Below, one piece after another: positions 46,407 through 51,335 of a stretch of 64,000 nucleotides of DNA. The DNA lies in assembly GCA_035553375.1 (NCBI GenBank), contig DATNCY010000318.1, forward strand, positions 698-64,697. Reading direction: 5' to 3'. The position numbers were made by a program, and so were the translations under genes. This DNA is from Gemmataceae bacterium. GTDB taxonomy: Bacteria; Planctomycetota; Planctomycetia; Gemmatales; Gemmataceae. Below the pieces are notes generated by a model. The model saw only the letters and a program-made list of their open reading frames with translations. It did no database searches and was not told the DNA's origin. The number at the start of each line of letters is the position of its first letter. The first letter of the stretch is position 1.

Positions 46407-48482
46407 ATGCCCTTGCTCGCACGGATGCTCATTCGTTTGGCCGGTTTCGCCCTGGTGCTTGGCGTGTTCGCCACGGATGCGGAACCCGCACTACGAGCCG
46501 CGCCGCTCGCGGCCGAGCGAACCGTCTACCTCGCCCGCGATTTGCCGGACGAGAACCTCATTGTCCTGGGCGCCACCCTCGCTGCCTGGCGTGAAGAGAG
46601 CGTCTTGCTGCTCGATTCATCCAAGGTATCGCCGTATGTGAAGCTATTTCTGGCGGCTTACAAGCCGTCCCAAGTCGTCCCGGTCGGGGCGGACGCGGCG
46701 AGCGTCGGCGAACTGGAGCGTCGCCTCGATATGAAGGCCACCACGCCCGTGACGTGGACGCACGGCCCGCCCTTGGCGCTATGGCGATCCTTGTTCCGCC
46801 GCGCTGACGATGTGGTCGTTTGTCCGGCCCATCCGCGCGGCACCTTGCTTCAAGCCGCTTGTCTTGCCGGGGCGTTGCGTGCGCCGCTGTACGTGGTGCA
46901 TGGCCGCGCCAGCGAGGGCGATAAACTCGCTCAACGACTCGCCGCCTGGCACACACGCCGCGTTTATCTCGTCGGCAAGGCCGACAAGCTGGCCGGTCAA
47001 CTCCACAGTATCGAACATCTTCATCTGAATAGTGAAAGCGCCGTGGCCACCGCGTATCAGAAATTACTGGCGCGACAAGGACGCATCGAAACCGTGATCC
47101 TGAGCAACCCGGCCGACATCGGCGAGGATCTCGGCGGCACTTCGGCGCTGGCCCCGTGGATCGCGGTGAACCGGCGCGCCGCCTTGCTGCTTACGAATCC
47201 TGCGGGAACGAATGTCGCCGAGGTCATGGATCGCGCTCAGCGGCGCGAAGCGCTGCGGCATATCAACGCCCTGTTGCTCGTGGCCAACCTGAAAGCAATC
47301 CCCATGTGGCAGCGGCCCAATCCGATCCCCGGCGACAAGGATCCGCATATCGAGATGGAGCCGTTGACGCCCACGGGCAATCGACCGTTTTCGTACGCCA
47401 CCGGCCGGCTGTTCCATCAAGAGCGCGCCGTCGTGCCGTTGCTGTTGGCTCGTCAGCGTCTGATGCTTGAAGGAAACGGCTCGCGCAAGGCACTGGTGGC
47501 GAGCAACGCCGGCGGCGGTTTGAGTCTGCTCGAAACCTTCTCGCGCAACACCATTCAGGAATTGCGCAATGCCGGCTATGAGACAACCACGCTCATCGGC
47601 AACAAGGTCAGCCGCGACGAGCTGCGCAAACAAATGCCTCTGCACGATCTATTTTTGTGGGAGGGACATTCGGGCACGCTCATGAATGACTATGAGTTCC
47701 CGACGTGGAATGATCCGTTGCCGCCGACGTTTGCTTTCCTGCAAAGCTGCCTGGCCCTTTCGGAACCGCGCGTCCATTCGCTGCTCAGCCGCGGAGCCGT
47801 CGGCGTCGTCGGCTCCTCGACGCGCACCTACTCCGGTTCGGGTGGGGCGTGTTCGCTCGCCTTCTTCAATGCACTTGTGTACGAACAACAATCGGTCGGC
47901 GAGGCGCTACGGCATTCAAAGAATTTCCTCCTCGCTTACTCTTTGTTGAAGGAGAAGCGTCTGGGCAAGAGCGCGACGCGCACCGGGGCCAACATCCGTT
48001 CGGCCTGGGCATTCACTCTCTGGGGCGATCCGACTCTGAAGCTGCCTGGGCCGCGGCGCTCGGCGAATCAGCCGCCGCGCCTGCCCTTCATCCGCCATGA
48101 AGTTCATGGCAACACGATCGCCGTGTCCGTGCCGGAAAAACGGGAAACGCTGGTGCGAACGGATAAATATCAGATCGCCTTGCCGCCCAACGGCCGCTTC
48201 GCCGGTCTGGTGCGCAAACAAAAAATCGACGAACGCCGCCCCTTGGTTCCGCTTGTGTTCGCGGAGATCCACCTACCGCGAGCGCGTCCGGGTCAGACAC
48301 CGCATCTGAGCAGCCGGCTGCCGTCCAAGCGTTGGGTGTTCTGCTGGGACGAACGGCGTCGCTGCGGTTATCTGCTCGTTACGCCCCGCCCGCAGGATGT
48401 GGGTGAGCTGCGTTTCCATGTTCGCTGGGAGACGATCGAAGCGAGGAACACCACTCCGTCAAGCATCAGCGGCGAAGAGTAG
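46407..48482 (+). CDS. Secreted protein: cell-wall-binding-repeat-2-like modules plus C25 (gingipain)/clan CD-like peptidase domain
   Basis: Signal peptide. Three modules of the type VVVCPAHPRGTLLQAACLAGALRAPLYVV...RVYLVG. C-terminal LFLWEGHSGT ... FAFLQSCLA (His/Cys dyad spacing like clan CD) and FTLWGDPTLKLP. Confidence 0.5.
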   Translation: MPLLARMLIRLAGFALVLGVFATDAEPALRAAPLAAERTVYLARDLPDENLIVLGATLAAWREESVLLLDSSKVSPYVKLFLAAYKPSQVVPVGADAASVGELERRLDMKATTPVTWTHGPPLALWRSLFRRADDVVVCPAHPRGTLLQAACLAGALRAPLYVVHGRASEGDKLAQRLAAWHTRRVYLVGKADKLAGQLHSIEHLHLNSESAVATAYQKLLARQGRIETVILSNPADIGEDLGGTSALAPWIAVNRRAALLLTNPAGTNVAEVMDRAQRREALRHINALLLVANLKAIPMWQRPNPIPGDKDPHIEMEPLTPTGNRPFSYATGRLFHQERAVVPLLLARQRLMLEGNGSRKALVASNAGGGLSLLETFSRNTIQELRNAGYETTTLIGNKVSRDELRKQMPLHDLFLWEGHSGTLMNDYEFPTWNDPLPPTFAFLQSCLALSEPRVHSLLSRGAVGVVGSSTRTYSGSGGACSLAFFNALVYEQQSVGEALRHSKNFLLAYSLLKEKRLGKSATRTGANIRSAWAFTLWGDPTLKLPGPRRSANQPPRLPFIRHEVHGNTIAVSVPEKRETLVRTDKYQIALPPNGRFAGLVRKQKIDERRPLVPLVFAEIHLPRARPGQTPHLSSRLPSKRWVFCWDERRRCGYLLVTPRPQDVGELRFHVRWETIEARNTTPSSISGEE

Positions 48483-48494
48483 CACAGTTCCCAA

Positions 48495-48548
48495 ACCAGC
48501 CCGCAGCGCCAGCAAGGGAACAATCCCTTGCTGGCGCTGCGGGCTGGT
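48495..48548. repeat. REP-A palindrome copy 7
   Basis: 25-bp perfect arms ACCAGCCCGCAGCGCCAGCAAGGGA / TCCCTTGCTGGCGCTGCGGGCTGGT, between the stop at 48482 and the start at 48576. Confidence 0.95.
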
Positions 48549-48575
48549 AGTTCCCCGGAAAAGAGAGGCAAACAG

Positions 48576-50216: not shown

Positions 50217-50351
50217 AATTTTTCACCACGGAAAGCACGGAAAACACGGAAAAATACAAAAAACGTAATTACAAGAGATGGTGCTTATTTGTTGATATGA
50301 ATTGTTTTTGTATTTTTCCGTGTTTTTCGTGCTTTCCGTGGTGAAAAATTT
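50216..50351. repeat. Periodic-arm hairpin P3: 47-nt arms (one mismatch) built from 9-nt units (CACGGAAAG/CACGGAAAA), AT-rich 42-nt loop
   Basis: AAATTTTTCACCACGGAAAGCACGGAAAACACGGAAAAATACAAAAA (50216-50262) pairs with TTTTTGTATTTTTCCGTGTTTTTCGTGCTTTCCGTGGTGAAAAATTT (50305-50351). Its first base is the last base of the stop codon TAA, and its last base abuts GGAGG. Confidence 0.95.
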
Positions 50352-50363
50352 GGAGGTCTGAGC

Positions 50364-51335
50364 ATGTTTTGGCTATTCAAGGCAGCGCGGCGTTTGCGCG
50401 AGTTGGGCATCCTAGGGATGAACCACCGTAACGCGGCCTGCATTCTCGATCACAATCCGCGTGCCCTCTTTCCGCTCGTCGATGACAAGCTGCGTATGGC
50501 GAAGCTGTGTCAGCGCATCGATGTACCGACGCCGGAGGTGTACGCGGAGGTATCGTCCTACTCGATGCTGCGTCGCTTGCCGGACTTGCTCGGCGACCGC
50601 TCCGACTTCGTCATCAAGCCCAATCGCGGCTCGGCCGGCCGTGGTGTGCTTGTCGTCGTCGGCCGCGAGGGGCGCGATTACTTGCGGCACAACGGCGAGC
50701 GATTGCGACTCGACGCCCTGCGCCAACATCTGTCCGACATTCTTTCGGGCATGTATTCGCTGGGCGGTCAGCCGGACACGGCCATCGTGCAACAGCGTGT
50801 CCGTCTGCATCCAGCGTTCGAGGTCATCAGCTACAAGGGTATTCCCGATGTGCGTGTGATCCTGTATCGTAACGAGCCGGCCATGGCCATGCTGCGTCTG
50901 CCGACGAAAGCGTCCAACGGTCGGGCCAATCTGCACCAGGGCGGCATCGGCACCGGCGTCGATCTCGACACCGGCATCACGCATCATGCCGTGCAGCGCA
51001 ATCGCTTCATCGAGCGCCATCCCGACACGGGCCGTCCGGTTGTCGGCATGCAGGTGCCGTTTTGGAACGACGTACTAGAGATGTCGCGGCGTGTAGCGCG
51101 AGCGGTGGGATTGGGCTATATCGGCGTGGATATTGTCGTGGACGAAGAAGCCGGCCCGATGCTGTTGGAGGCGAACGCACGGCCGGGTTTGGCCATCCAG
51201 ATCGCCAACGGTCGCGGCTTGCTGCCGCGCTTGCAAGCTATTGATGCGCTACTCGATCAAGCGCCGCGAACGATCTCGCTGGAGCGCATTCGCCAGGCTC
51301 CGCGCGTGCAGGAACCGCTTCGCAAGAGTGCGTGA
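50364..51335 (+). CDS. Alpha-L-glutamate ligase-related (RimK-related) ATP-grasp protein
   Basis: ILGMNHRNAACILDHNPR, FVIKPNRGSAGRGVLVV, SNGRANLHQGGIG and IGVDIVVDEEAGPMLLEANARPGL. GGAGG lies 7 nt upstream of the ATG. Confidence 0.8.
   Translation: MFWLFKAARRLRELGILGMNHRNAACILDHNPRALFPLVDDKLRMAKLCQRIDVPTPEVYAEVSSYSMLRRLPDLLGDRSDFVIKPNRGSAGRGVLVVVGREGRDYLRHNGERLRLDALRQHLSDILSGMYSLGGQPDTAIVQQRVRLHPAFEVISYKGIPDVRVILYRNEPAMAMLRLPTKASNGRANLHQGGIGTGVDLDTGITHHAVQRNRFIERHPDTGRPVVGMQVPFWNDVLEMSRRVARAVGLGYIGVDIVVDEEAGPMLLEANARPGLAIQIANGRGLLPRLQAIDALLDQAPRTISLERIRQAPRVQEPLRKSA

Follow-up and report, generated by a model that had tools for sequence, protein, structure and literature searches.

How does a gene for a C25-like cysteine peptidase come to stand directly in front of a pair of genes resembling rloB and rloC, at the place where Pseudomonas aeruginosa carries the gene for the retropepsin-like protease RloA? 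The question is raised by a locus in a 64,000-nucleotide stretch of Gemmataceae bacterium DNA (assembly GCA_035553375.1, contig DATNCY010000318.1; this whole stretch is referred to below as the window). We lean towards the reading that the Gemmataceae locus is an RloABC envelope system in which RloA has been non-orthologously replaced by a secreted C25-like peptidase. Three co-directional open reading frames (ORFs) on the + strand make up the locus, at 46407-48482 (the peptidase, 691 aa, ending in TAG at 48480-48482), 48576-50216 (the RloB-like protein, 546 aa, TAA at 50214-50216) and 50364-51335 (the RloC-like protein, 323 aa, TGA at 51333-51335). The RloB-like frame starts at ATG 48576 (MSRT...), which is conserved in four orthologues, and not at the upstream TTG 48528. 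Judging by sequence comparison, two things would be new here, the displacement of the protease in an Rlo system and the extension of this system to Planctomycetota. The original computational description of the pairing between seven-transmembrane (7TM) and ATP-grasp proteins is said to be that of Iyer et al. from 2009; our literature searches, which did not cover that computational paper, found no description of the C25-like Rlo variant.

The P. aeruginosa rloABC operon was named by Lormand et al. (mBio 2025) in a genetic, structural and biochemical study (PMC12239564), so that a preliminary description of the window, which called the function of the system experimentally unknown, is out of date on this point. 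In that species RloA is a secreted, periplasmic retropepsin-like aspartic protease cleaving runs of at least eight Glu residues, the transglutaminase-like domain of RloB is predicted to be periplasmic, and RloC, an ATP-grasp protein of the cytoplasm, shares 24% identity with RimK (PMC12239564). A triple rloA mutant, with every RloA paralogue gone, dies at low osmolarity and also shows defects in cell shape, biofilm and beta-lactam tolerance, all of which, the hypo-osmotic lethality included, are suppressed by deletion of rloB or rloC (PMC12239564). A screen in Shewanella has linked an RloB homologue to membrane-vesicle production (PMC12096838).

Linkage of the peptidase gene to the RloB/RloC pair

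The peptidase and RloB-like genes are real genes with plentiful homologues (800-920 each at E <= 0.001 in the protein collection), the closest of them carrying the annotation Gemmataceae bacterium (Planctomycetota) and the named peptidase homologues reading 'C25 family cysteine peptidase [Gemmataceae bacterium]'. A scan centred on RloB, with one genome per GTDB species, yielded 58 loci, all of them from Gemmataceae, Gemmatales or unclassified Planctomycetota except for a few bins labelled Alcaligenaceae. The C25-like gene was linked in 39 of the 43 species genomes that could be tested, i.e. those in which RloB is full-length and preceded by at least 2.3 kb of sequence. The reciprocal scan, centred on the peptidase in metagenome contigs, gave 68 loci, and RloB was present in all 17 that had at least 3 kb upstream and at least 0.6 kb downstream of the peptidase gene. 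Ten peptidase loci with at least 0.6 kb downstream are without RloB; all ten have less than 0.6 kb upstream, so that an alternative gene order is possible there.

Six neighbourhoods of peptidase homologues were also looked up individually: L001, L002 and L003/L004, whose peptidases are 54-72% identical to that of the window, the divergent L136 (the protein of L059, 32% identical) and its relatives L134 and L135. All six carry the order peptidase, transglutaminase-7TM protein, ATP-grasp protein on a single strand, with unrelated flanks each time; the partner in L136 is 7TM only, without the transglutaminase domain. The preliminary description had tied the upstream gene to the pair, and its co-conservation with them is borne out by both scans and by the look-ups.

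The order of the genes within the unit is not entirely fixed. The arrangement C25, RloB, RloC is found in 64 loci and C25, RloB followed by the end of the contig in 22, while RloB, RloC, C25 occurs in two (L092 and L095), RloC, C25 in one (L085) and C25, 7TM-only protein, RloC in two (L059 and L121). Spacers are mostly 22-130 nt between peptidase and rloB and mostly 12-180 nt between rloB and rloC, and the linkage persists down to 32% peptidase identity. Among 35 triad loci with 4 kb of sequence on each side, any one flanking gene family is found in at most 10, which indicates that the conserved unit is the triad itself and not a larger syntenic block. A search with the divergent L059 peptidase retrieved the same family only, with no spread beyond Planctomycetota. 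A candidate fusion of the C25 and RloB genes in L032 was rejected, as a TAG stop separates the two.

These statistics largely refute the notion that the peptidase is simply an unrelated neighbour, such as a secreted nutritional protease, kept in place by lineage-wide synteny. It is true that all linked loci belong to one lineage (Gemmataceae/Gemmatales or unclassified Planctomycetota), and that a very stable hairpin of the repetitive extragenic palindromic (REP) type lies between the peptidase and rloB-like genes in the window. Yet the flanks are unconserved while the triad is conserved, the linkage survives both reordering of the genes and divergence to 32% identity, RloB accompanies the peptidase in every testable peptidase-centred locus, and most orthologous spacers do not contain the REP element. 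We regard an unrelated neighbour as very improbable.

Canonical loci, obtained by tblastn of RloC against plasmid records, show what the planctomycete peptidase gene stands in for. In Legionella adelaidensis (L063) a 152-aa PF05618 gene directly precedes rloB and rloC, and in Aeromonas caviae (L065) a PF05618 gene likewise directly precedes rloB; the C25-like gene thus occupies the place where the retropepsin gene normally is, as had been suggested from the window sequence. A retropepsin gene was sought with a two-sequence hidden Markov model built from the L063 and L065 RloA proteins, and with each protein alone, in six-frame translations of 1.56 Mb. Neither the window nor the sequence within 7-10 kb of the 134 related loci yielded a PF05618-like ORF, with a two-sequence model of limited reach, while the L063 and L065 RloA proteins used as positive controls were recovered at E 1e-82 or better. 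The lack of a small retropepsin-like gene in the window is thereby upheld, and no such gene came to light in a conserved position in the related loci, a finding that would have told against the preliminary description; given the model and the sequence searched, the absence holds for the conserved neighbourhood only.

That scope leaves some room for a reading in which retropepsins are encoded elsewhere and the peptidase, tied as it is to RloB and RloC, is no equivalent of RloA, acting for instance on the periplasmic domain of RloB or on a wall component. The search covered the window and the 7-10 kb flanks, two rloA paralogues lie outside the operon in P. aeruginosa (PMC12239564), and the Gemmataceae RloB keeps His247, Cys204 and Cys264, so that its periplasmic domain may work differently. 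We think this reading unlikely, since the C25-like gene sits exactly at the rloA position, immediately upstream and co-directional, and since the retropepsin family is found mainly in Proteobacteria, Bacteroidota and Actinomycetota (96% of RloB sequences being themselves proteobacterial) (PMC12239564).

Some observations on individual loci may be added here. Several 'binchicken' metagenome-assembled genomes titled 'uncultured Alcaligenaceae bacterium' (L035, L040, L041, L043, L053 and L059) have the same triad, their RloB being 42-56% identical to Gemmataceae RloB, and judging from these sequences the Alcaligenaceae labels are probably wrong. A second planctomycete class consists of a stand-alone 7TM_transglut protein of about 260-350 aa, usually beside an RloC-like gene (L053, L055, L056, L057, L060 and L061, as well as L059 and L121); within this class the C25-like gene is upstream only in L059 and L121, and L057 has an upstream co-directional alpha/beta-hydrolase gene (Peptidase_S9/DLH-like) instead. 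In L033 a co-directional 632-aa ORF (3219-5117), unrelated to the peptidase and without Pfam match, abuts rloB and could be another partner. In L134 (5492-5821) and L136 (7523-7846) the triad is immediately preceded, on its own strand, by a small ArsR-type helix-turn-helix gene (HTH_5/HTH_20), a possible local regulator; the window does not have it. On Legionella adelaidensis plasmid 5, two C1-family cysteine peptidase genes and pepP (L063 5942-8238) follow rloABC in convergent orientation, perhaps by coincidence.

The three gene products and their proposed roles

The peptidase (46407-48482) is predicted to consist of four parts: a signal peptide at residues 1 to about 25 (MPLLARMLIRLAGFALVLGVFATDA, 46407-46481, judged by eye), three tandem alpha/beta repeats at residues ~36-297 (46512-47297), a clan CD catalytic domain at residues ~298-548 (47298-48050) and a C-terminal all-beta domain at residues ~549-691 (48051-48479; beta strands 564-676 in the model). 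Pfam Peptidase_C25 (PF01364) is matched at 32.1 bits against a gathering cut-off of 23, and is matched by all 44 orthologues, with weak matches of two of these to C50 and of one to CW_binding_2. In an alignment of the 44 orthologues (53-76% identical), His421 (codon 47667-47669, in WEGHSG) and Gln446-Ser447-Cys448 (Cys codon 47748-47750, in FLQSC) are invariant. The dyad is kept in a wider set reaching down to 32% identity, along with invariant Arg and Lys residues including R303, R334, R473, R502, K505 and R531; His421, Cys448 and Gln446 are each retained in 109 of 112 loci and Arg473 in 114 of 115.

The AlphaFold model of the peptidase (pLDDT 87.4, pTM 0.88) places His421 right after strand 415-420 and Cys448 right after strand 441-446, the two strands being consecutive. 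Gingipain K is its top Foldseek match in the PDB (4rbm, E 8e-8; 6i9a), followed by separases, with probability 1.00; since several domains are compared at once, TM-scores stay low, at 0.3-0.5. The matching gingipain K entries comprise the catalytic domain and an immunoglobulin-superfamily-like domain. The gingipain-like His/Cys pair pointed out in the preliminary description is thus recovered in motif, fold and conservation alike. Its cell-wall-binding-type repeats fared less evenly. At the level of fold they have support, for the model shows three beta-alpha-beta-alpha-beta-alpha units and Foldseek also matches it to the Clostridium difficile proteins Cwp6 (5j72, E 1.4e-5), Cwp8 (5j6q) and SlpA (8bby); in Pfam the window protein is unmatched, the single orthologue that matches CW_binding_2 (PF04122) doing so at E 0.0055.

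At the N-terminus a basic n-region leads into a hydrophobic core (Kyte-Doolittle up to 2.27); in the model this end of the protein forms a helix (residues 3-21) and then a disordered linker, and its hydrophobicity is conserved among orthologues. The retained His/Cys pair, the clan CD fold of the model and the signal-peptide-like N-terminus suggest that the C25-like protein is probably an active secreted enzyme. The mature protein has a pI of 9.9 (median over the 44 orthologues 9.4) and its C-terminal domain is strongly basic (pI 10.95), a charge that, as far as composition can tell, fits weakly with an anionic ligand.

The second gene (48576-50216) encodes a membrane protein with an N-terminal transmembrane (TM) helix, a periplasmic pseudo-transglutaminase domain (residues ~35-310, 48678-49505) and a 7TM_transglut module (residues ~317-530, 49524-50165) with a conserved cytoplasmic tail, GRYTGYRLxELxRFRDF. 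It matches Transglut_core (E 4e-13) and 7TM_transglut (E 2e-51) in Pfam. On the narrow NCBIfam model inact_TG_RloB ('osmotic stress tolerance membrane protein RloB') it scores 152 bits against a cut-off of 900, and is therefore not an equivalog by that model. Its identity to the Legionella and Aeromonas RloB proteins is 24-26%, the 7TM part and C-terminal tail being best conserved, and the residues common to it and gammaproteobacterial RloB include R355, R398, R411, E454-R455 and R525-F526. The AlphaFold model has a pLDDT of 74 overall and of about 60-80 in the 7TM part, where helices are seen; no structural analogue of the 7TM module was found in the PDB, the model being weak there. The periplasmic domain finds structural matches in the transglutaminase-like 'cysteine protease' 3isr (E 2e-11), LapG, the pseudomurein endoisopeptidases PeiP/PeiW and TG2/3.

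As had been noticed from the sequence, the catalytic Cys and Asp positions of this domain are lost: Arg212 (49209-49211, GDRLAQS) stands for the Cys and Cys264 (LPMCPFY) for the Asp, while His247 is retained. Across 89 RloB homologues the Cys position is Ser in 28, Arg in 26, Ala in 25 and Cys in 4, so that the nucleophile is absent in 85 of 89; the His is kept in 85 of 87 loci, and the Asp position is Cys in 84 and Asp in 4. The four with Cys at the nucleophile position (GDC) plus His are L020, L021, L025 and L031, those with Asp at the third position L022, L044, L048 and L095, and Cys and Asp occur together in no RloB locus. By these alignments the label 'inactive' does not fit the transglutaminase domain of every Gemmataceae RloB homologue. 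The invariant Cys204 and Cys264 of the RloB-like protein might form a periplasmic disulfide.

A transglutaminase-like domain that has mostly lost its nucleophile brings up another role for the clan CD enzyme, namely that of a transpeptidase. It would cleave either the RloB/RloC product or an acceptor protein and join it covalently to a polymer of the wall or surface to which the CWB2-like repeats bind, and in this way provide a ligation reaction of which the dead RloB domain is incapable. Clan CD has such enzymes, among them the C25-family sortase PorU of type IX secretion, GPI8 and the legumain ligases. The linkage evidence speaks for a transpeptidase as much as for an RloA-like protease, and the triple CWB2-like module suggests polymer anchoring. 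Sequence cannot tell hydrolysis from transpeptidation; the Pseudomonas partner, however, is a plain endopeptidase, and the genetics there suggest that a toxic product is being removed (PMC12239564), so that we attach only a small probability to the transpeptidase.

The third gene (50364-51335) encodes a ligase predicted to be cytoplasmic, with no hydrophobic segment. It passes the cut-off of TIGR02291 rimK_rel_E_lig ('alpha-L-glutamate ligase-like protein'; 360 bits against 314), matches Pfam ATPgrasp_ST at E 9e-81 and is 47% identical to Legionella RloC and 45% identical to Aeromonas RloC. Together with the Pfam matches of the RloB-like protein, this confirms the earlier assignment of the two genes as a pseudo-transglutaminase 7TM protein and an alpha-L-glutamate-ligase-like ATP-grasp enzyme. 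The RimK family model TIGR00768 gives 51 bits against a cut-off of 143, matches to RimK models and structures are partial, and those to RimK and cyanophycin synthetase chains distant; by these profile scores the protein is related to RimK yet not a RimK. On the Halobacterium sp. DL1 plasmid CP007061.1, a 584-aa ORF in a stretch without an annotated gene in the record (L064 5203-6957) has an N-terminal 7TM_transglut domain (E 3e-24) fused to ATPgrasp_ST (E 2e-59). In this fusion the ligase sits at the cytoplasmic end of the 7TM module, an arrangement that speaks for direct coupling of the two.

How the three proteins could work together is suggested by the Pseudomonas genetics. The protease there cleaves runs of Glu and counters some product of RloB and RloC, hence the RloA-like role proposed for the C25-like peptidase, which by this analogy we infer to be the functional equivalent of RloA; the same comparison makes the RloC-RloB product probably glutamate-rich. 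The cytoplasmic RloC-like ligase would build a peptide or tail rich in glutamate. The 7TM module of the RloB-like protein would dock the ligase and pass or present the product at the periplasmic face, where the dead transglutaminase-like domain would bind it. The secreted C25-like peptidase would cut or trim the product, preventing its accumulation, and the CWB2-like repeats would keep the peptidase attached either to the product or to some anionic polymer of the envelope.

Several points weigh against a peptidase that has replaced RloA. Four RloB loci (L023, L033, L047 and L049) are without the C25-like gene. Within the protein, the Peptidase_C25 match is confined to residues 462-546 (the last 80 profile positions), with the dyad outside it, and no clan CD chain came up when the PDB was searched by sequence, either with the profile of the peptidase family or with only the catalytic region, so that the fold assignment rests on Pfam and Foldseek. 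Characterised C25 enzymes cleave after Arg or Lys, not Glu. By analogy with the two unlinked rloA paralogues of P. aeruginosa, an unlinked retropepsin gene may coexist elsewhere in these genomes. Finally, a search of sequencing runs found the window in soil-metagenome DNA runs only and in no RNA run.

A bolder proposal, which we put forward tentatively and hold to be rather doubtful as a whole, is that RloB and RloC make an exported anionic envelope product resembling poly-alpha-glutamate that always needs a periplasmic protease, a need met twice, by a retropepsin and by a clan CD peptidase. The planctomycete enzyme would then be a clan CD peptidase with specificity for Glu runs, the first of its kind, and the CWB2-like module would point to a wall-associated product. 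If so, the invariant Gln446-x-Cys448 and Arg473 would recall the way in which caspases bind an acidic P1 residue. An attempt at mapping the S1 pocket by comparing the family profile with human caspase-3 gave a probability of 0.6%, which is not significant.

The rlo operon of P. aeruginosa affects osmotic tolerance, beta-lactam sensitivity, biofilm formation and cell shape (PMC12239564). An unrelated protease kept together with RloB and RloC would be independent comparative support for the model of a dedicated extracytoplasmic protease; the finding overturns nothing and supports the view that the protease counteracts the RloB/RloC product. It would also widen the range of RloB to Planctomycetota, a phylum with a poorly understood envelope. 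The thiol nucleophile of the peptidase could be trapped by activity-based probes and, with the putative polymer-binding module, could help to capture the substrate.

Intergenic palindromes and neighbouring genes

Both spacers of the triad and the region behind it contain palindromes. The REP copy that had been noted between the peptidase and 7TM genes is a perfect palindrome (48495-48548, 25-nt arms, 4-nt loop) in the 93-nt spacer, with a predicted RNA hairpin of -59 kcal/mol; no T-run follows it, so that it is not terminator-like. The window holds seven copies of this hairpin where none is expected (CCAGCCCGCAGCGCCAGCAAGGGA and its complement, with near-perfect 24/25-nt arms, at 6903-6957, 13943-13991, 20613-20667, 29306-29353, 31888-31936, 36151-36205 and 48496-48547). 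Orthologous peptidase-rloB spacers are mostly without the palindrome, and the family has one weak match only (L077) across about 130 related loci, and so seems confined to this genome or close relatives. The element at 48495-48548 is treated here as a REP-type insertion that need not break the operon. REP elements of Escherichia coli can change the relative stability of mRNA segments.

The 147-nt rloB-rloC spacer is mostly filled by an AT-rich palindrome of 136 nt with 47-nt arms (50216-50351), unique in the window, whose arms are made of CACGGAAA-type sub-repeats and whose predicted hairpin reaches -78 kcal/mol. The local GC content is 0.51 there against about 0.62 around it, and a GGAGG ribosome-binding site of rloC comes just after it. 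Related arms lie at the same rloB-rloC site in L005 (11650-11782) and L072 (10783-10890); the L001 spacer at this site is only 30 nt long. From its sequence the palindrome looks like a small mobile or foldback insertion. A third, nested palindrome (51363-51465) begins 28 nt past the rloC stop, with outer arms of 19 nt, two copies of GGGGGCGTCAGCCCCC and a predicted hairpin of -77 kcal/mol; the inner motif also occurs in L005, L060 and L078. It is a probable mark of the end of the transcription unit and would act as a terminator. Scanning 46000-51800 for promoters and terminators gave about as many hits as shuffled sequence does and was uninformative on operon structure.

Upstream of the triad, the product of the divergent gene at 43267-46122 (- strand) has 951 aa, its N-terminal domain being C45/phospholipase-B-like and a further region weakly M1-peptidase-like; the gene neighbours the triad in only six related loci and therefore falls outside the conserved unit. 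Beyond the rloC-like gene the next genes are on the opposite strand: a 76-aa ORF (51438-51668) and a DUF7691 gene (51725-52354) stand between rloC and a TANGO2-like gene (52974-53726). At the corresponding place in L001 (12737-12861) the TANGO2-like gene comes directly after rloC, so that the DUF7691 gene and the 76-aa ORF look like a local insertion.

Comparison with known systems

The closest known system is rloABC itself. The RloC-like protein belongs to the same TIGR02291 family and is 45-47% identical to the Legionella and Aeromonas ligases; the order protease, RloB, RloC is the same, with the protease gene immediately upstream on the same strand, and RloB shares the N-terminal TM helix, the Cys-less periplasmic transglutaminase-like domain and 7TM_transglut. 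The differences lie in the protease, here a 691-aa clan CD cysteine peptidase with CWB2-like repeats and there a 150-aa dimeric retropepsin (PF05618), in RloB, which in Gemmataceae keeps the transglutaminase His and two invariant Cys residues whereas the gammaproteobacterial RloB is without all three triad residues, and in the host, which here belongs to Planctomycetota. The pairing of RimK with RimB (poly-glutamylation of ribosomal protein S6) is alike in joining an ATP-grasp glutamate ligase with a protease that removes Glu runs; unlike the Rlo system it is cytoplasmic and without a membrane partner.

Among gingipains and other clan CD enzymes (Kgp, RgpB, PorU; separase, caspases), Kgp has a C-terminal beta-sandwich after the catalytic domain, as does the window peptidase, while the N-terminal triple CWB2-like module is missing from gingipains. 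The Q-S-C preceding and including the peptidase Cys presumably recalls the QAC of caspases more than it does gingipains. The three tandem alpha/beta repeats are matched by Foldseek to C. difficile Cwp6, Cwp8 and SlpA, although the host here is a planctomycete of the Gram-negative type and sequence similarity is almost nil. Cwp84 of that group combines a CWB2 envelope-targeting module with a cysteine protease that is papain-like (C1) and not of clan CD, and the window peptidase would resemble it in having an envelope-targeting module joined to a cysteine protease. In the PgsBCA/CapBCA systems with CapD or PgdS, a Mur-ligase-like enzyme makes a gamma-linked Glu polymer that is exported and then cut or anchored. 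The protein families are unrelated to those of the Gemmataceae locus, and the likeness, by analogy, would be one of logic, a cytoplasmic amide ligase and membrane proteins that together export an anionic Glu polymer working with a dedicated extracytoplasmic enzyme.

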